A DNA stretch of 64,000 bases, from assembly GCA_002293685.1 (NCBI GenBank), contig DBDS01000002.1, positions 31,742 through 95,741 on the forward strand, written 5' to 3'. The translations under genes were made by a program, and so were the position numbers. This stretch comes from Patescibacteria group bacterium UBA926 (GTDB taxonomy: Bacteria > Patescibacteriota > Doudnabacteria > UBA920). The stretch's first letter is position 1. Every line of letters starts with the position of its first letter. Of this stretch, positions 1 through 41,249 are shown in pieces. The notes beneath the pieces were generated by a model that saw nothing but the letters and a program-made list of their open reading frames with translations, was not told the DNA's origin and did not search any database.

Positions 1-1127
1 ATCGCCGCCACAGTTTCGCCACCGCCCGCCACCGTATATGCTTTTCGCTTTCCAATTCCACCAATTACTTTAGCTAAAGCCATTGTGCCAGATCGATAGG
101 GTTTTTCCTCAAAATAACCCATAGGTCCATTCCAGCAAACTGTTCCGGCTGTTTGTAAAATTTTGGTATAAGCTAAAATAGTTTTAGGTCCGATGTCGTA
201 TACTTTATCTGTCTGAGATATTTGTGTTAAGTTCTTTGCCACAATCTTGATCCCTGTTCGTTTCTGAGGTGAGTAAACAATTACATCATCGGGAAAAACT
301 AATTTATGTTTTAGATTTAATAATAATTGTTTTGATAACTGGGACCCGGCTTTATCAAGCTGATCACTTCCAACATTATAACCTTTAGCATGTAAAAATA
401 AGTTTGCCAAACCGCCGCCAATCAAAATTTGATCAGCGCGCTTTCCAAGGCTCATTAACGTTTTGGCTTTATCAGAAATTTTTATTCCGCCCATCATTAA
501 CACAAATGGCTTTTTGATTCTTCCAGAAATCAATATATCTAGCGCGGCTATTTCTTTGGAAAGCAATGGACCCGCATAGCTTGGCAAATATTTTGTAATG
601 GCTGAGTTAGAAGCCTCCGCTCTATGAGAAACACTAAACGCATCATTCACATAGACATCACCTAGCTCAGCAAGTTGGCGTGCAAACTTGTCTTGGTTTT
701 TTTCTTCACCTTCATAAAAACGAATGTTCTCGAGCATAACAATATCGGCAGGAGTTTGATGAATCAATTGCTGACGAACAGTGGCATCGGTAAGATCCCC
801 TGTAAACAAAATAAAATGCTTCACTGCGTACTCTGGTAACTTGGCATCAGCTTTAACAAATTTATAGTTCAGTTTTTCTGCTAGTGATTTTGCAATTGGT
901 TCCAGGGATAGCGACTTAACCACTTTCCCTTCCGGTCTTCCTAAATGCGAAATTATCACGAGCTTATTTCCATTTTTTTGAAGTTGCGAGGTGGTAGGTA
1001 AAGCAGCTTGGATTCTGTAATCATCAAGCAGTTTTCCCGACTTATCAATAGACTCATTTAAATCTAAGCGAAGAATTATTCGCTTATTTTTGAGGCTTTT
1101 ATTTGTGGATATCTGCTTTATTGACAA
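1..1127 (-). CDS. pgk: phosphoglycerate kinase. The C-terminus lies beyond the window edge. The start is uncertain: TTG at 1127, or ATG at 1277 which adds a non-PGK-like 50-aa extension.
   Basis: The minus-strand translation has the PGK motifs ISHLGRPEG, ENIRFYEGEEKN, DAFSVSHRA, GGGLANLFL, WNGPMGYFE and GGGETVAA. No in-frame ATG lies near the conserved N-terminus. Confidence 0.85.
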   Translation of the reverse strand, partial: MSIKQISTNKSLKNKRIILRLDLNESIDKSGKLLDDYRIQAALPTTSQLQKNGNKLVIISHLGRPEGKVVKSLSLEPIAKSLAEKLNYKFVKADAKLPEYAVKHFILFTGDLTDATVRQQLIHQTPADIVMLENIRFYEGEEKNQDKFARQLAELGDVYVNDAFSVSHRAEASNSAITKYLPSYAGPLLSKEIAALDILISGRIKKPFVLMMGGIKISDKAKTLMSLGKRADQILIGGGLANLFLHAKGYNVGSDQLDKAGSQLSKQLLLNLKHKLVFPDDVIVYSPQKRTGIKIVAKNLTQISQTDKVYDIGPKTILAYTKILQTAGTVCWNGPMGYFEEKPYRSGTMALAKVIGGIGKRKAYTVAGGGETVAA

Positions 1128-1307
1128 TGTTTCTAAATTATGGTTTAATACAGAGGTCTGAAATTTAGACAAGTCGCGTACCGAAGGAGGTGTTATGGCT
1201 TTTTTTAAATGGATGGCGAATGCCCATGTCGGCGAAGATGCTCTGTTTGTAAGTCCAGGCACAACGATGATAATCATTATCGCAATGCTTGTAACTGGAG
1301 GTGCATT

Positions 1308-1436
1308 ATGGCTAATCGGCTAGATAAGCCGCAAACAACGAGTTGGTTCGAAACTACCTCCCCCAAAACATTCCTGTTCACTCTAGTAGTGTTTGGACTG
1401 GTATTTCTGATCACAATCTTCTACAACATAGCTTAA
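1308..1436 (+). CDS. hypothetical 42-aa single-pass membrane peptide
   Basis: GGAGGTG lies 4 nt upstream of the ATG. The peptide has a hydrophobic C-terminal helix (FLFTLVVFGLVFLITIF). It is followed directly by a hairpin plus T-run. A TTGTAA-N16-GATAAT promoter-like sequence lies upstream. Confidence 0.45.
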   Translation: MANRLDKPQTTSWFETTSPKTFLFTLVVFGLVFLITIFYNIA

Positions 1437-1448
1437 CCTCAAGCCCGA

Positions 1449-1480
1449 CCGAACGCTCCCACGTTCGGTTTTTATTTTTT
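1449..1480 (+). terminator. rho-independent terminator of the small plus-strand ORF
   Basis: Stem ccgaacg / cgttcgg is followed by tttttattttttt on the plus strand. No U-run follows it on the minus strand. Confidence 0.5.
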
Positions 1481-2503
1481 TAAAGTTTTACCAACCAACA
1501 CACACTGCTCTACCAAACGATTAGAGTAACCAAATTCGTTATCATACCATGCAATAACTTTTACCATATTACCACCAACAACTTTAGTTAGAGATAAATC
1601 TACGATTGCAGATGAAGGATTCCCGACGATATCGGAAGAAACGATTTGATCTGTTGTAACCGAAATTCTGTCTTTGTACAAAGGATGATTTGCAGCATCA
1701 GTGAAAGCCTGATTAACTTCTTCAGAGGTAACATCACGCGCCAATAACATAGTAAAGTCAGATAAGCTCCCCACTGGAGTTGGAACGCGAATCGCCATTC
1801 CATCGAACAAACCTTTTAACGCAGGTATAGTTTCGGTCGCCGAAATCGCTGCGCCAGTTGTTGTCGGTACGATATTTGTAGCCGCCGCGCGGGCGCGGCG
1901 CATATCATTACTATGACCACCTGGAGGCGGGCCATCTACTAAGTTTTGCTCTGCGGTATAACTATGAATAGTTGTCATCATTGCTTTCTGAATACCAAAC
2001 TTGTTATGCAAGACATGCGCAACTGGAGCGATACAGTTAGTGGTACACGAAGCATTGCTGATAATTGCTTCATCGGAATACTTGTCTTCATTCACACCAA
2101 GTACGAATGTTTTAGTCATTCCTTCATCTTTTGCAGGAGCAGAGATGATTACTCGTTTTGCACCAGCTTGTAAATGAGCTCCTGCTTTTTCACTATCGGT
2201 AAAGCGCCCAGTACTCTCAATGACGATATCTACATCCAAATCTTTCCATGGTAAAGCACTTGGATCCTTTTCAGCGAGCACAGTGAATTTTTTGCCATCT
2301 ACTATGATATGCTTTTCGTCAAATGAAACTTCTTTTCCATAACGACCATAGTTTGAATCATACTTTAACAATCCAGCTAAGGCTTCTGGGCTAGTTAAAT
2401 CATTAATCCCCACTACTTCTAAGTCATGGTTATCTAATGCAATTTTGAAAGCTTGGCGGCCGATGCGCCCGAAGCCATTGATGGCAATTTTAGTTTTAGA
2501 CAT
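1472..2503 (-). CDS. gap: type I glyceraldehyde-3-phosphate dehydrogenase
   Basis: INGFGRIGR NAD-binding motif and active-site SNASCTTNCIAP; full-length at 343 aa. Confidence 0.95.
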   Translation of the reverse strand: MSKTKIAINGFGRIGRQAFKIALDNHDLEVVGINDLTSPEALAGLLKYDSNYGRYGKEVSFDEKHIIVDGKKFTVLAEKDPSALPWKDLDVDIVIESTGRFTDSEKAGAHLQAGAKRVIISAPAKDEGMTKTFVLGVNEDKYSDEAIISNASCTTNCIAPVAHVLHNKFGIQKAMMTTIHSYTAEQNLVDGPPPGGHSNDMRRARAAATNIVPTTTGAAISATETIPALKGLFDGMAIRVPTPVGSLSDFTMLLARDVTSEEVNQAFTDAANHPLYKDRISVTTDQIVSSDIVGNPSSAIVDLSLTKVVGGNMVKVIAWYDNEFGYSNRLVEQCVLVGKTLKK

Positions 2504-2845: not shown

Positions 2846-3712
2846 TTAATTTACTTGATTAATAGTTTTAAACGCCATGAGTTTTGCTTTCGCTGCTTCT
2901 GTAACTCCGGCTATAGCAGGAGATAAATATTTTCTCGGATCAACTTCATCGGGATGTTCGAGCAATGCTGCTCGTAAATTTTTGGTAAATCCGATACGAA
3001 GTTCGGTATCGATATTAATTATGCTGATACCTGCTTTAATAGCTTGATGAATGACATCGTCCGGTACACCACTCGCACCATGCAAAACAAGTGGCACGGG
3101 AACCAACTCAGCAATTCTTTGAATTCTATCTATATCTACTTTCGCCTCTGCTTCTCCTGTCATCTTTATAATGCCATGAATTGTACCTACAGAACAAGCT
3201 AAAGTGTCCACACCCGTTGCTTCCCAAAATGATTTTGCTTCTTCGGGTTCAGTTAGTAGGCTTTCTCTATCGGACACAGAAACCCAGTCTTCGCTGCCAC
3301 GAATACGTCCGATTTCACCTTGCACCCAAGCTCCTTCTTTATGAGCAAACTGAACCAACTCTTTGGTGTTTTTGATATTCTTATCTAAATCCTCACCAGA
3401 GTGATCAATCATCACCGAAGAATAGCCAAGCTCAATTCCCTGCCGCAGTTGATCAACATCTTTACCATGATCCATGTGAAGAGCGATCGGAACTTTAGCT
3501 TTGATCGCCATAGTTGCCATAACTTCAAAGATTGTTTCAAGACCCGCATATTTAATCGCGCCTTCGCTAGTTTCTAAAATTATTGGAGTATTCAATTCTT
3601 CAGCAGCAGCAATAATCCCCCGAGTGATTTCAAGGTTCATTGTGTTAAACGCGGGATATGCAAATTTCCCGCGGACAGATTGTTCGAATAGTTCTTTAAT
3701 GTGAACGAGCAT
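2846..3712 (-). CDS. fba: class II fructose-bisphosphate aldolase
   Basis: FbaA-family sequence with HMDHG metal-binding region; GAGAGG Shine-Dalgarno about 11 nt upstream. Confidence 0.9.
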   Translation of the reverse strand: MLVHIKELFEQSVRGKFAYPAFNTMNLEITRGIIAAAEELNTPIILETSEGAIKYAGLETIFEVMATMAIKAKVPIALHMDHGKDVDQLRQGIELGYSSVMIDHSGEDLDKNIKNTKELVQFAHKEGAWVQGEIGRIRGSEDWVSVSDRESLLTEPEEAKSFWEATGVDTLACSVGTIHGIIKMTGEAEAKVDIDRIQRIAELVPVPLVLHGASGVPDDVIHQAIKAGISIINIDTELRIGFTKNLRAALLEHPDEVDPRKYLSPAIAGVTEAAKAKLMAFKTINQVN

Positions 3713-36762: not shown

Positions 36763-37431
36763 TTACTTTTTCTTCTTAGTTTCTACAACTTCTTGGAATA
36801 ACGGTTTAGTAACTCCGGTTGTAGATATTTTTACCATTCCATTTGGGTGTCCTGGTACAGCGCCCTTAACAAGAATTAAACCTTTATCTGCGTCTACGTC
36901 TACAATCTGTAAGTTCTTAACAGTAACTTGGGAATTGCCCATGTGACCAGCCATGCGGCGGCCTTTGTTAACGTGTTGTGGATAACGAGAACCGATAGAA
37001 CCAACACTGCGAGGCTTATCGTGACCATGACTTCCAGGGAATCCAGCAAAGTTATGACGCTTCATAACACCAGTGAATCCTCGGCCCTTCATAGTACCGG
37101 TTACGTTAATAATTTCTCCAACTTCGAAAGTAGAAACATCAATCTTTTGGCCAATTTGGAATTCGCTAGAATTTTCTAGGCGGAATTCTACAAATTTACC
37201 GAAAGTTCCAAGATCTTTTGAGTGACCAGTCTTCGCCTTGTTTGAATGACGACTTCCTGCCACTTGAGGACTGACACCAACCTGAACGGCATTGTAGCCA
37301 TCTTTAGTTTCGCCAGTTTTGACTTGAGTTACCACAATTTCTGGAGCTTTCACAACAGTAACTGGGATTACTTCGCCGTTTTCGGCAAAGTACTGAGTCA
37401 TATTTAATTTCTTACCTACAATAAATTTCAT
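36763..37431 (-). CDS. rplC: 50S ribosomal protein L3
   Basis: MKFIVGKKLNMTQYF... The start is the ATG at 37429-37431; the track ORF is extended upstream. Confidence 0.9.
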   Translation of the reverse strand: MKFIVGKKLNMTQYFAENGEVIPVTVVKAPEIVVTQVKTGETKDGYNAVQVGVSPQVAGSRHSNKAKTGHSKDLGTFGKFVEFRLENSSEFQIGQKIDVSTFEVGEIINVTGTMKGRGFTGVMKRHNFAGFPGSHGHDKPRSVGSIGSRYPQHVNKGRRMAGHMGNSQVTVKNLQIVDVDADKGLILVKGAVPGHPNGMVKISTTGVTKPLFQEVVETKKKK

Positions 37432-37557
37432 ACAGTTTTGATTGGTCCATATCTTGGTCGCAAATGCGGCAAGCCGCCCTGCTCCGCGTTCGTACTGGCA
37501 AAGCCAGATACTCACTCGCTAAAGAAATAGGGACATCACTTTCATAAATAATTGTTT

Positions 37558-37621
37558 TGTCATCCTGAGGCCAAAGGCCGAAGGATCTCGAATGAGATTC
37601 TTCGCTTCGCTCAGAATGACA
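37558..37621. repeat. family-1 palindromic element
   Basis: tgtcatcctgaggccaaaggccgaaggatctcgaatgagattcttcgcttcgctcagaatgaca. Confidence 0.65.
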
Positions 37622-37764
37622 TGAAAATAAAAAAATGTGGCTACTCACCACATAAAAACAAGTCATAAGGCCGGAGGCCATGCTTTGCTTATATTTGGCG
37701 AATAGTTATCTGAATCGCCAAGCTTTTTGGGCTTTTGCGGTTCAGAACCAACTCACTCTAGTAT

Positions 37765-38088
37765 TTAACTCATTTTAATTTCTACATCAACCCCAGCTGG
37801 AAGGCTTAAGTTGGTGAGAGAATCGATGGTTTTAGGCGTAGCTTCTGTGATATCGATCATACGCTTGTGTGTGCGCATTTCGAACTGTTCACGGCTATCT
37901 TTGTGCACGAAAGTTGAACGCAATACAGTGTATTTGCGCTTCGCGGTCGGCAAAGGAACTGGTCCCGAAATGGTTGCCCCAGTGCGCTTAGCTGTTTCAA
38001 CGATCTGCTTTGCGCTTTGATCAATTAACTTGTGATCGTACGCGCGGATCTTGATGCGAATTTTCGGCTTGTGTTCGCCTTTTTCCAT
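37765..38088 (-). CDS. rpsJ: 30S ribosomal protein S10
   Basis: [16 protein letters not shown] motif. The probable start is the ATG at 38086-38088 (MEKGEHKPK...); the track ORF starts at an upstream TTG. Confidence 0.9.
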
Positions 38089-38180
38089 AAAATGAATTGA
38101 CAATATGCTTGTTTCTCGCTTATTTATGCGTTAAACAGCAATTAAAATTGCTTAGCTACTTAGCTAGCAAACTAAGACCA

Positions 38181-38209
38181 ATTTTATCTGATATTTCAAC
38201 TAATGTCAA
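38181..38209 (-). promoter_or_regulatory. sigma70-type promoter for the S10 operon (TTGACA-N17-TAAAAT)
   Basis: On the minus strand: catTTGACAttagttgaaatatcagaTAAAATtgg; a leader hairpin cagcaattaaaattgc lies downstream. Confidence 0.55.
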
Positions 38210-38244
38210 ATGTTTTTTAAAGAAAATCGTTGTTTTTGTATAGG

Positions 38245-38273
38245 TTTGACAAAAAGTGCTATAAATAGTATAA
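38245..38273 (+). promoter_or_regulatory. perfect-consensus sigma70 promoter TTGACA-N17-TATAAT
   Basis: gtTTGACAaaaagtgctataaatagTATAATgtg, about 35 bp from and divergent to the S10 promoter. Confidence 0.7.
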
Positions 38274-38309
38274 TGTGTAAAGTAAATTTCAGTATCTATG
38301 GAGGATATA

Positions 38310-38734
38310 TGTTGAAAAGTATCGTATTTGGAGGCATGAGCAGCCAAGAGTTTGTAATCGTCTACACTATTATGAATTCAAGATGTGTCTTTACACAAGC
38401 TGTGCCGCGCAACAATTGCATTACCATAAATTGGGCCGAAGAAATTATCGGAGAGATTATGGATAACGAAAAGCGTAGATATGACCGATTTTATAACTTA
38501 CTGATTATCAGGAAGCATCGGCCATTCGTACCTGTTCACGAGTCAAGGCCTCATCTGGAGTTTTGCGAAGTGATTAGCAAGCTTGAAGATAAGCCCGATC
38601 ATTCCACTGATTTCAAACACACCCGATTCCCCGATCAACTTCGCGAAGTTTTCAATGGGTTGATACCGAATAACGTGAAGCAGAAATCAAAGATGGTCGC
38701 TTCAGGATTCGGACAAAAGATCCATTCTTGGTAA
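38310..38734 (+). CDS. orphan 141-aa hypothetical protein
   Basis: GGAGG 6 nt upstream of the ATG. Preceded by the consensus promoter and followed by a strong terminator. No recognisable domain. Confidence 0.55.
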
Positions 38735-38767
38735 ATTTCAGGATTTCCTCAACGATAACTAATTAGA

Positions 38768-38793
38768 AGAGCCGCTCCCCGGCTCTTTTTTAT
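38768..38793 (+). terminator. rho-independent terminator
   Basis: agagccg-ctccc-cggctct followed by ttttttatt. Confidence 0.7.
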
Positions 38794-38832
38794 TATCCCA
38801 ACAAAAAACTCCCCAATTTCTGGGGGAGTTTT

Positions 38833-38863
38833 TAAGATCCTTCGGCTTCGCCTCAGGATGACA
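38833..38863. repeat. solo right arm of a family-1 element
   Basis: taagatccttcggcttcgcctcaggatgaca. Confidence 0.45.
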
Positions 38864-38866
38864 TAG

Positions 38867-40048
38867 TTATTTGTTGATTTTAACAACAACACCTGCACCT
38901 ACAGTTCGGCCACCTTCACGGATAGCGAACTTACCTTTTTCTTCCAAAGCGATCGGAGTGATCAACTTTACGTCGATGGTAACGGTGTCACCAGGCATAA
39001 CCATTTCTTGGCCTTCTGGCAAGATTACTTCACCAGTCACGTCGGTTGTACGAACGTAGAACTGTGGCTTGTAACCCTTGAAGAATGGAGTGTGACGTCC
39101 ACCTTCTTCTTTGGTCAAGATGTAAACTTCAGCAGAGAACTCAGTGTGAGGAGTGATAGAACCAGGCTTAGCCAAAACTTGGCCGCGCTCAACTTCTTCT
39201 TTCTTAACACCACGGAGCAATAGACCAGCGTTGTCACCAGCCATACCCTTGTCGAGCTGCTTGTTGAACATTTCAACACCAGTTACAACGGTCTTTGAAG
39301 TAGGTTTGATACCAACAATTTCAACTTCTTCGTTGATATTGATAACACCACGTTCGATACGACCTGTAACTACAGTACCGCGACCTTCAATTGTGAAGAT
39401 ATCTTCGATAGGCATTAAGAAAGGCTTATCGGTTTCGCGGGTTGGTTCAGGGATGAAAGTATCCAATGCTTCTACAAGCTTAAGGATAGTTTCTTCGTTT
39501 GCAGCATCTCCTTCGAGAGCTTTCAACGCAGAACCACGGATGATAGGAGTTTCAGCTCCTGGGAATTCGTACTTGCTTAGAAGATCACGAATTTCTTCTT
39601 CCACAAGATCCAAAAGTTCTGGATCGGAAACTTGGTCTACCTTGTTCATGTAAACAACGATAGAAGGTACACCTACCTGACGAGCGAGCAAGATGTGTTC
39701 GCGAGTCTGAGGCATAGGACCGTCTGCAGCTGATACTACAAGAATCGCACCATCCATTTGAGCAGCACCGGTAATCATGTTTTTGATGTAGTCGGCGTGA
39801 CCTGGACAGTCAACGTGAGCGTAGTGACGCTTGTCGGATTCGTATTCGCTGTGTGAGGTATTAATAGTAATACCACGAGCTTTTTCTTCTGGCGCGTTGT
39901 CGATTTGGTCGTAAGCCTTAGCTTTTGCCTTACCAGACTTCGCAAGCACAGTAGTGATAGCAGCGGTCAAAGTTGTCTTACCATGGTCAACGTGGCCGAT
40001 GGTTCCCACATTCAAATGGGGCTTTGAGCGATCAAATTGTTCTGCCAT
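38867..40048 (-). CDS. tuf: elongation factor Tu
   Basis: [23 protein letters not shown] and NKVD G-domain motifs; full-length at 393 aa. Confidence 0.97.
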
Positions 40049-40295
40049 TTGATGCCTTTCGAGCTATAAAAAGTTTTCAATTCTTGTCCCGAGATACCCT
40101 CGCTCCTTCCCCTATCGATGCGAGGAAAAAGAGAGGGTTTCTCTTTTTTTCACGTAGGAATCCAGAAACAAAAAGAGGTGAATTTATAGCGGTTAATTAT
40201 TATTTACCGTTATGTGCCGAAGTCGTTTGGCCAAGTTCGATACGAGCTTACTCGGGCCAAGCCCGAGTATCGCAAGCAGGAAAAAGTTGAGCAAG

Positions 40296-40335
40296 TTGCG
40301 AGCCGTACTAATAGTACGGTGAGCGACTAGCGGAA
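40296..40335. repeat. family-2 hairpin element
   Basis: gcgagccgtactaatagtacggtgagcgactagcgg. Confidence 0.55.
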
Positions 40336-40351
40336 ACTTTTGACAAAGAAA

Positions 40352-40422
40352 TTGGGCAAACCCGGAGGGCGAGTTTGATTGAAAGTCTGAATTTACTTCA
40401 GACTGAGATCAAACGAGCGACG
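40352..40422. repeat. family-3 structured element (copy 3 of 3)
   Basis: ttgggcaaacccggagggcgagtttgattgaaagtctgaatttacttcagactgagatcaaacgagcg. Confidence 0.65.
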
Positions 40423-40564
40423 AGGTACATACGATTATAAAATTGGCGGCCGCAAAGCGCGCCAATCAATAAGTATTCTAAGTCTTTTTACGTATCGCGT
40501 CAAGTTGCCAACCAGCCGGAAACGTGCCACAATGTAGGCATCATACACATAGGGGGTATTATAT

Positions 40565-40834
40565 ATGCCATACCGAACCTTGAAGGTGCATTGGATTCAA
40601 TATTTAAACGAAGAGAAGGTGTCTGATCTTTATTCATACCACTCTTCGCCAGAAACTTTTGAATTCTTTCGCATGAGATTCCTGAGAGAAAATAGAACCA
40701 AACAATCACCGTACCAATATTCCATTGGTTTGACAGGTTGGGTTCTGGTCTCTGATACTAAGGGCACAGCAATAAAAAATTCCATCTTTGGAATTTGGCA
40801 TGTTGATGACATGGAGGTGAAGCAGTCTGTTTAA
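40565..40834 (+). CDS. orphan 89-aa hypothetical protein
   Basis: AGGGGG 8 nt upstream of the ATG; TTGCCA-N17-(TGc)CACAAT promoter-like sequence; a terminator hairpin overlaps the stop codon. Confidence 0.45.
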   Translation: MPYRTLKVHWIQYLNEEKVSDLYSYHSSPETFEFFRMRFLRENRTKQSPYQYSIGLTGWVLVSDTKGTAIKNSIFGIWHVDDMEVKQSV

Positions 40835-40852
40835 CAGACTGCTTTTTCTTTT
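40821..40852 (+). terminator. rho-independent terminator
   Basis: agcagtctg-tttaa-cagactgct followed by ttttcttttt. Confidence 0.6.
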
Positions 40853-40856
40853 TACA

Positions 40857-41249
40857 TTAAACCTTAAGTCGAATTAACTTACCTTTGCGTTTGACAATGT
40901 TTTTATAATCCCATTGGACTGTCTTTGATTCTTTCAACCAAAGTCTTAAATCCTTTAATTTGATTTCATCTGCTGAAGTGTAATTTTTTTGAGCAGCTTT
41001 AAAGCTTCCTTCTTTTTCTAGACCTTTGGCTTTAAAAGATTGCCCACTCCAGAATAATAATGTTACCCCAACTTTTCTTTTGGAATATCCAGCGACTGGA
41101 TTTCCTTCGATAAACCAAACTGGGCCGCCGTGCCAAAGTTTGCTTTCTGCTTTTTTGAGAGACTTATCGATTTCTTCGGCTAACTTTTTACTAATAGCTT
41201 TGTCTTCGCCTTTGAGCGCGTTGTTATATTTTTGAATGTCTTTGTGCAT
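40857..41249 (-). CDS. DUF1801 (YdhG/YdeI)-like protein
   Basis: Shape and motifs resemble DUF1801. The start is probably the internal Met (MHKDIQKY...), which avoids overlap with the upstream gene. Confidence 0.45.
   Translation of the reverse strand: MHKDIQKYNNALKGEDKAISKKLAEEIDKSLKKAESKLWHGGPVWFIEGNPVAGYSKRKVGVTLLFWSGQSFKAKGLEKEGSFKAAQKNYTSADEIKLKDLRLWLKESKTVQWDYKNIVKRKGKLIRLKV

Follow-up and report, generated by a model that had tools for sequence, protein, structure and literature searches.

Torsional coupling between divergent promoters has been established elsewhere, by modelling (PMC4154641) and for promoter pairs of E. coli (PMC4469952), and hotspots of horizontal gene transfer (HGT) between core genes have also been documented (PMC5635113). 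The locus described here lies between tuf and rpsJ in a 64-kb stretch of DNA from Patescibacteria group bacterium UBA926 (contig DBDS01000002.1, positions 31,742 to 95,741; hereafter the window, in whose positions all coordinates are given), and contains a 141-aa open reading frame (ORF) transcribed divergently from the S10 operon of ribosomal protein (r-protein) genes. The divergent promoter upstream of the ORF is termed P_div and that of the S10 operon P_S10, and L-numbers denote the tuf-S10 loci of relatives. The ORF is most readily understood as a passenger gene occupying a variable slot behind a divergent promoter that belongs to the locus and that, we infer, constitutes a functional module with P_S10, a reading that we regard as probable though by no means secure.

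The arrangement resembles supercoiling-coupled divergent pairs, as conceived under the twin-domain model, in consisting of two opposed sigma-70-type promoters with tens of base pairs between their -35 hexamers, one of which heads an operon of a supercoiling-sensitive class, that of the r-proteins. It differs in that coupling is here only predicted, in that the partner promoter is conserved but the gene downstream of it is swapped or absent, in that the transcripts of cargo-less promoters would be ∼30-60 nt and poor generators of supercoils, and in the helically periodic spacing described below. With core-flanked HGT hotspots it shares the presence, in close genomes, of unrelated accessory genes and ORFans in one interval, here that between tuf and rpsJ. 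No integrase is found in this interval, as would accord with genes being exchanged through homologous recombination in the flanks; what sets the locus apart from the documented hotspots is its position inside the near-universal str/S10 array, its conserved outward promoter and its occurrence in ultra-small bacteria of the candidate phyla radiation (CPR). A fixed strong promoter preceding exchangeable cargo also recalls the Pc promoter of integrons, but as a functional analogy only. An integron-like platform was considered and rejected: neither the window nor its relatives have an integrase-like ORF in the gap, no attI/attC-like repeats were found, and the cargo is heterogeneous in size and orientation.

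In the window, positions 38309-38734 (plus strand) constitute a genuine gene, monocistronic and equipped with a consensus sigma-70 promoter, a Shine-Dalgarno sequence and an intrinsic terminator of its own. P_div (38246-38274, +) comprises the -35 hexamer TTGACA (38246-38251) and the -10 hexamer TATAAT (38269-38274) and, judged on both hexamers and a spacer of 17 ± 1 bp, matches the sigma-70 consensus at 12/12 positions with a 17-bp spacer. It is the sole perfect consensus match in the window; when up to one mismatch was allowed six promoter matches were found, against 0.68 expected from shuffled sequences, a number reached by 0/100 shuffles. That P_div works as a promoter is suggested by L001, which retains the hexamers at 11/12 and has an extended -10 TG, and by 29 related loci that retain them as well. 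The 5′ untranslated region (UTR; 38275-38308, +) extends ∼27 nt from the predicted start site and carries a GGAGG Shine-Dalgarno sequence (38300-38304) that ends 4 nt ahead of the ATG at 38309. The initial annotation had recognized the consensus promoter, GGAGG, ATG and terminator, and the 141-aa length of the ORF, all of which are present, although its coordinates were one base off: the promoter occupies 38246-38274 and the start codon lies at 38309 rather than 38310, a frame opened at 38310 being interrupted by nine stop codons on translation. Two database gene calls for the protein (P0001 and P0002; 174 and 194 aa) are over-extended, starting at in-frame codons upstream of the promoter such that their N-terminal 33-54 residues represent translated promoter and UTR; the correct start is ATG 38309. 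A 141-aa version is present at NCBI as HAG27257.1, a "hypothetical protein" of a Patescibacteria group bacterium, and its 90% cluster includes the window protein.

Downstream of the ORF, an intrinsic terminator (38765-38795, +) is formed by a GC-rich hairpin (38765-38789) followed by a T-run that would give the U-tract of the transcript; its predicted folding energy is -13.9 kcal/mol (z = -5.45 versus shuffled sequences). L001 has a hairpin and T-run at the matching position, with a different stem sequence and a weak fold (-6.8 kcal/mol, z = -1.08). Beyond the terminator an inverted repeat (38804-38833) represents a bidirectional terminator hairpin that would terminate tuf and provide a back-up stop for the ORF transcript. 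The tuf gene itself (EF-Tu; 38867-40048, minus strand) is convergent with the ORF, as the initial annotation had stated, and all remaining plausible genes of the window that encode 100 aa or more are on the minus strand.

Evidence that the ORF is a gene comes in part from its conservation. A full-length copy with 98% identity is found in L003 (GCA_022842405.1, an 851-kb contig), and another with 55% amino acid identity in L001/L002, which derive from an unrelated sample; in each case the gene is divergent and beside rpsJ. L001 additionally retains a promoter (TTGACA-N17-TATACT, with an extended -10 TG) and a Shine-Dalgarno sequence. In comparison with L001 the proportion of nonsynonymous differences (pN) is 0.29 and that of synonymous differences (pS) 0.82, with synonymous sites saturated, and differences at the three codon positions number 51/36/81. 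The nonsynonymous divergence (dN) of 0.37 compares with 0.03-0.16 for r-proteins over equal divergence. Because pN is far below the saturated pS, the ORF is concluded to be under purifying selection, albeit evolving faster than r-proteins. Furthermore, frame 0 outranks the five other frames in codon score. That the frame is instead open by chance within a long tuf-S10 spacer, the promoter driving a non-coding or antisense RNA, could be argued from its want of a known domain, from its being the sole large plus-strand ORF of the window and from relatives in which nothing but a very short RNA lies behind P_div. Such a reading is rendered very improbable by conservation over the full length with a pN much lower than pS, by 24 distant homologues of equal length, by a confident AlphaFold fold, by a Shine-Dalgarno sequence at the correct distance and by the best codon score in frame 0.

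The interval in which the gene resides is variable to an unusual degree. The tuf-rpsJ gap measures ∼20-220 bp in most Patescibacteria, versus 240 to >3,200 bp, with unrelated ORFs inside, in the clade whose S10 identity to the window is at least ∼80%. Among 80 genome and 80 metagenome loci searched by tblastn, the 141-aa gene was detected only in L001, L002 and L003, and no additional loci emerged when contigs from genomes and metagenomes were scanned for the pattern of the ORF profile. L004, in which S10 and tuf are 98% and 99% identical to those of the window, instead carries an unannotated 442-aa protein, a D12 DNA methyltransferase and a 196-aa membrane protein in the slot, and L005 (S10 97% identical) a ClpP-like SDH protease and a 116-aa helical protein. 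Cargo at further loci includes a Zeta toxin, an APH kinase, TPR proteins and many ORFans, and some of it appears, on reading by eye, to be glycosyltransferase-like. Judged from these sequences, the tuf-S10 interval of this Doudnabacteria-like clade behaves as a gene-turnover hotspot between two highly conserved genes. Conservation of the ORF at the locus, which the initial annotation had proposed to examine, is therefore partial, holding for L001-L003 and failing for L004 and L005; since genomes with 97-98% identical S10 carry unrelated genes there, the ORF is an accessory passenger and not a fixed component of the ribosomal locus.

In L015 (3090-3220) and L024 (1660-1750) the last tuf codons (GVVTKIIK*) are duplicated and flank a ∼75-nt insert, which looks like insertion into the tuf 3′ end with restoration of the frame and hints at how the hotspot gains genes. 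In the window a 14-nt direct repeat, GTAAATTTCAG(T/G)AT (38282-38295 and 38731-38744, +), brackets the ORF, one copy lying just past the predicted start of transcription and the other at the stop codon. This placement hints at an insertion junction, although the frequency of the repeat is at chance level. It is the sole repeat flanking the ORF, and as no integrase was found either, mobile-element signatures around the gene were rejected.

The perfect promoter had led the initial annotation to suggest, as one of two options, a very abundant protein. A protein of this kind might be translation-linked, such as a lineage-specific ribosome-associated factor co-regulated with r-proteins, which would explain the maximal promoter beside P_S10. 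The promoter, canonical Shine-Dalgarno sequence and strong terminator would all accord with this, as would the retention of the tuf/rpsJ position in L001 and L003. However, the gene is missing from the nearest relatives at species level, where S10 is 97-98% identical and the slot is filled by others, its homologues elsewhere lie away from ribosomal genes, its dN exceeds that of r-proteins as given above, and the isoelectric point (pI) is not conserved in the family (4.5-9.1). Codon usage lies at the low-expression end, with a log-likelihood ratio (LLR) of -0.17 per codon versus +0.02 to +0.20 for r-proteins and tuf, and G+C content at third codon positions (GC3) is 0.47 versus 0.34 for window genes. 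By its codon usage and its absence from L004 and L005, the ORF falls outside the r-protein/highly expressed set. A very abundant protein is consequently not supported, and a translation-linked one is improbable; the composition of the gene would fit one that has been acquired and is not highly expressed.

The distribution of the divergent promoter is quite distinct from that of the gene. P_S10 (TTGACA-N17-TAAAAT, 11/12; 38209-38181, minus strand) is a promoter-like site whose hexamers are conserved upstream of S10 clade-wide, and an alignment of the region upstream of rpsJ reveals, in many members, an outward-facing second promoter just upstream of it. In the window the spacer between the back-to-back -35 hexamers (38210-38245) is 36 bp, or 42 bp centre to centre (∼4.0 helical turns), bearing out the close-range divergence from the S10 promoter first noted for this locus; the predicted start sites are ∼107 bp apart. 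The -10 elements, at 38181-38186 and 38269-38274, are 82 bp apart with the -35 elements between them, so that a symmetric bidirectional promoter, in which opposed -10 elements reportedly overlap and start sites are ∼18 bp apart, was rejected. Such promoters (PMC10268837, PMC12825309) are alike in giving divergent transcription from one short intergenic region, but they do so from a pseudo-symmetric shared -10 region at which polymerase binds in one or other orientation, whereas at tuf-S10 loci there are two complete and separate promoters, with -35 elements 15-68 bp apart, for which simultaneous occupancy is possible.

Divergent promoters scoring at least 10/12 were detected at 29 loci, ten of them at 12/12, with cargo that differs or is absent; roughly half of the clade has a near-consensus divergent promoter beside P_S10, irrespective of what lies behind it. 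Three unrelated cargos are represented among the window, L001, L004 and L005, yet all four have 36 bp between the -35 hexamers and a similar UTR, with a -10-to-start-codon distance of 34-39 nt and a GGAGG. Cargo-less examples are the 12/12 promoters of L015 and L024 and the 10/12 promoter of L019, where the tuf-S10 gap is 236-391 bp and the promoter aims into the tuf terminator with no ORF in between, and in L021 and L027 the divergent promoter faces the terminator of a co-directional gene. Between L015 and L019 synonymous divergence (dS) is ∼1.0 for tuf and ∼2.8 for S10, yet in the aligned spacer the only conserved islands are P_div, its spacer included, and P_S10. In these two genomes P_div is thus no less conserved than P_S10. 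Conservation of these islands despite such divergence points to selection acting on the divergent promoter itself. At the level of sequence, the near-consensus divergent promoter is thus seen to belong to the locus and not to the 141-aa gene.

The two promoters of the pair also differ in composition. An extended -10 TGn is found in 16/29 divergent promoters versus 1/60 of the S10 promoters, 60 loci having a P_S10 that scores at least 10/12, and the -10 hexamer of P_S10 is nearly always TAAAAT, TAAACT or TAGAAT and not TATAAT, such that the r-protein promoter looks deliberately sub-consensus. The extended -10 TG was rejected as a mark unique to divergent promoters, since further strong promoters within the window possess it too. 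The idea that a conserved small RNA follows the cargo-less promoters was likewise rejected, L015, L019 and L024 having only terminator hairpins in common. In the subclade of L011, L016 and L018, at ∼30-110 nt past the divergent promoter, the divergent transcript opens with a conserved AGGAGG, followed by a T-run and then a GGAAG...CTTCC hairpin, with the cargo >100 nt away; this element may represent a 5′ UTR element or a small RNA.

Each cargo could alternatively have arrived by recombination through the conserved flanking genes as a cassette bearing its own strong promoter, in which case adjacency to P_S10 would be incidental and the cargo-less promoters would be recent remnants left by the loss of cargo. 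Members of the 141-aa family at unrelated loci mostly have a promoter and/or downstream hairpin, promoters close to consensus abound in the genome and frequently have an extended -10 TG, core-flanked HGT hotspots are well documented (PMC5635113), the divergent promoter is missing from many clade members, and the L019 copy is partly degraded and displaced, all of which such an origin would explain. It would account less readily for a single 36-bp spacing and similar 5′ UTR shared by three unrelated cargos, for conservation of the cargo-less L015 and L019 promoters at a tuf dS of ∼1 when the surrounding spacer DNA has diverged, for the 12/12 match kept by both L015 and L024 in different spacing classes, or for the 10.5-bp periodicity of the spacings. 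A cassette-borne promoter is considered possible, if rather doubtful.

This periodicity is apparent when distances are expressed in helical turns. The gaps between -35 hexamers fall into classes of 15/16, 26-28, 36/37, 46/47 and 68 bp, corresponding to 2.0, 3.1, 4.0, 5.0 and 7.05 turns (centre to centre, at 10.5 bp per turn). A Rayleigh test on the five gap classes gave R = 0.95 (p = 0.005), with a best period of 10.4-10.5 bp. Six further metagenome promoters (gaps of 7, 15, 24, 25, 34 and 37 bp) fitted the predicted phase less tightly (V-test p = 0.02), and for all 14 distinct gap values R was 0.75 (permutation p = 1e-4). Helical-turn phasing of P_div and P_S10 is accordingly regarded as suggestive. 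To our knowledge, helical periodicity of spacing is not a described feature of supercoiling-coupled divergent pairs.

A number of observations weigh against a locus-owned promoter module. Near-consensus promoters are usual in this genome, with six in the window, and most family members elsewhere have promoters, so that each cargo could have brought its own. Nine members with short gaps (L025, L026, L030, L031, L096, L101, L103, L104 and L106) have no divergent promoter, indicating that the S10 promoter works alone there, and in L019 the cargo-less promoter matches at just 10/12 positions, at a distance of 117 bp. No phasing is seen for promoters at distances of 84-117 bp, and the phasing test draws on few independent lineages and on classes noticed post hoc. 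Little supercoiling would be expected from short transcripts that meet a terminator immediately, and the promoter and terminator assignments are consensus matches. In addition, there is no motif, fold match or constant neighbour pointing to a function for the protein.

Notwithstanding these points, a functional pairing of P_div with P_S10 is the reading that we prefer. Polymerase at P_div would assist P_S10, either through local negative supercoiling or through polymerases sharing one DNA face; alternatively, it would shield P_S10 and the S10 leader from tuf read-through. Whichever gene lands behind P_div would then be constitutively transcribed. The initial annotation had proposed transcriptional interference and coupling with ribosome synthesis as its other option, and a link at promoter level to the S10 promoter is the more interesting lead, for which the recurrence and phasing of the divergent promoter offer indirect comparative support. 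A more far-reaching version would make P_S10 one half of an obligatorily paired, helically phased module in a regulator-poor CPR clade, the outward promoter being selected for its effect on P_S10, through topological or polymerase-sharing activation or through insulation from tuf read-through, with a high-expression landing pad for acquired genes such as the 141-aa family as a by-product; this is put forward as speculation, and in its entirety is unlikely.

The protein itself belongs to a family which, judging by the libraries searched, had not previously been described, nor had its fold model and genomic setting. Homologues were sought exhaustively with a hidden Markov model (HMM) among 1.84 billion cluster representatives and then in two profile searches among 5.8 billion clusters; these yielded ∼24 clusters (134-157 aa; profile E 1e-11 to 1e-52), all from Patescibacteria and all alignable over their whole length. 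No cluster carries a Pfam domain or an informative name, a distant member being TSC61538.1 ("hypothetical protein"). Near-invariant positions are Y19, C26, F28, A43, I46, I50, E54, R60, F85, E87, P108, F115 and Q125, and in the family alignment (A5), which defines membership by a full length of ∼135-157 aa and the conserved positions, the window protein possesses both. Single-sequence and profile searches with the window protein gave no significant match in Pfam, NCBIfam, PHROGs, PADLOC or PDB sequences, in agreement with the initial annotation, which had seen no recognizable domain. A 142-aa gene in L087 was considered as a paralogue but dropped when it failed to align. The proteins are soluble and lack a signal peptide.

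Structure prediction, which together with homology searching had been suggested as a check on the ORF, was useless when AlphaFold was supplied with three sequences (predicted local distance difference test, pLDDT, 34) but confident with the 24 family sequences (pLDDT 86.3; predicted template modelling score, pTM, 0.83). The predicted order of elements in this soluble alpha/beta protein is b1-b2-b3, a helix at residues 38-54, b4-b5-b6 and a short helix. A Foldseek search of the PDB returned nothing at E ≤ 1e-3. The best leads were to the DapF-like/histidine-racemase fold (CntK, 6l4l; HisR, 9cr6), which was rejected as these matches had TMq values of 0.36-0.45, below a template modelling (TM) score of 0.5, and E of 0.085-0.21. 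A DapF-like catalytic Cys at the N-terminus of the central helix was likewise not found, a cap motif S/T-I-N-x-A-E being present instead and the near-invariant C26 lying in strand 3. Among viral models, one uncharacterized phage protein was matched (E = 1.1e-3).

Elsewhere, family genes are solitary, and most copies examined have a recognizable promoter (9-11/12) and/or a downstream hairpin; none of those at other loci adjoins ribosomal genes, and no constant partner gene was found across the settings, which vary and are typical of CPR genomes. Neighbours include cytidine deaminase, thymidine kinase and a PemK toxin at one locus, NERD, DUF2726 and MazG-like genes at another, and a nearby HNH nuclease at a further one. 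One member has a serine recombinase and a reverse transcriptase next to it and a gene for an Rhs/SpvB-like protein downstream; a supposed tuf beside P0018 proved to be an Rhs/SpvB-like protein. Type IV secretion system (T4SS)-type pilins and ClpB or an (Apyc1-like) metallo-beta-lactamase (MBL) hydrolase are near others, flavodoxin and pirin genes accompany the family elsewhere, and one copy is directly downstream of a tRNA 3′ end.

Settings of this kind raise the possibility that the protein is a component of a conflict system, that is, a stand-alone defence, immunity or anti-defence protein, and that the slot is a hotspot akin to a defence island, a proposal compatible with the passenger reading preferred above. 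Its patchy, rare distribution and fast evolution would fit, as would the nuclease-, toxin-, recombinase- and reverse transcriptase-type neighbours (NERD, DUF2726, MazG-like, PemK, HNH, Rhs/SpvB-like and Apyc1-like MBL), the copy just downstream of a tRNA, and the Zeta toxin and DNA methyltransferase in the slot of relatives. Against this, the argument is one of guilt by association; no constant partner exists, further settings are of a metabolic or unrelated character (cytidine deaminase with thymidine kinase; flavodoxin with pirin; ClpB with pilins), and among the 24 members there is no PHROG match and, in PADLOC, no more than two isolated weak hits (E > 0.03) to members other than the window protein. 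The role is therefore judged tentative and on balance unlikely. Given the patchy spread and the kinds of neighbours, our best guess, made with low confidence, is a niche or conflict-related cytoplasmic binding protein and not a translation factor. Although a real gene, it belongs to an ordinary category, that of CPR hypothetical proteins.

On the S10 side, rpsJ (37765-38088, minus strand), the first gene of the S10 operon, was identified from the ORF list and from the Pfam Ribosomal_S10 domain on its L001 and L003 homologues, with relatives recovered at 70-98% identity. Alignment and a consensus fold indicate that it is preceded by a structured 5′ leader of ∼85 nt (38089-38173, minus strand) without a Shine-Dalgarno sequence, in which a 23-nt block before the ATG is invariant in five relatives and the fold comprises a hairpin, one pair of which covaries from G-C to A-U, together with a long-range helix. 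Rfam covariance models gave no gathering-score match in the tuf-S10 spacer or S10 leader, the best over 37000-41000 having E of ∼0.05 or above and falling well short of the threshold, and no tRNAs or known RNAs were found between tuf and S10. The leader may be an autoregulatory r-protein leader. The rpsJ-rplC spacer (37516-37764, minus strand) is unusually long (∼250 bp) and contains a terminator-like hairpin (37653-37635) followed by two small palindromic elements; it may act as an attenuator within the S10 operon.

These palindromic elements are of a type, GTCATYCTGAGSCGAAGSCGAAGRATC, that occurs as two inverted copies in the S10-L3 spacer (37560-37625) and as one copy, GTCATCCTGAGGCGAAGCCGAAGGATC, right after the tuf stop codon (38836-38862, minus strand). 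Related elements are presence/absence insertions in the loop of the S10 leaders of L003 (5877-5908) and L004 (∼3375-3440). Upstream of tuf, ∼800 bp (40049-40856) contain promoter-like sites at 40503-40475 (minus strand) and elsewhere and a strong hairpin (40819-40845), and gave no convincing ORF, tRNA or Rfam match; the region may be a long tuf leader or a novel RNA. A second plus-strand unit of the window (1121-1485) consists of a promoter, TTGACA-N17-TTTAAT with an extended -10 TG (1121-1149), two 42-aa hydrophobic peptides (ATG 1195 and ATG 1310), each with a Shine-Dalgarno sequence, and a terminator-like hairpin (∼1443-1485), and is convergent with a GAPDH-like gene (1472-2503).

The 141-aa family represents a tractable target, being small, having a confident model with no detectable structural relative and occurring only in episymbiotic Patescibacteria. 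If the promoter pair is functional, it would provide a simple cis-encoded means of setting or protecting transcription of the r-protein operon in CPR bacteria, which lack most known growth-rate regulators, and would, if true, explain how a gene-turnover hotspot is tolerated within one of the most conserved gene arrays of bacteria.

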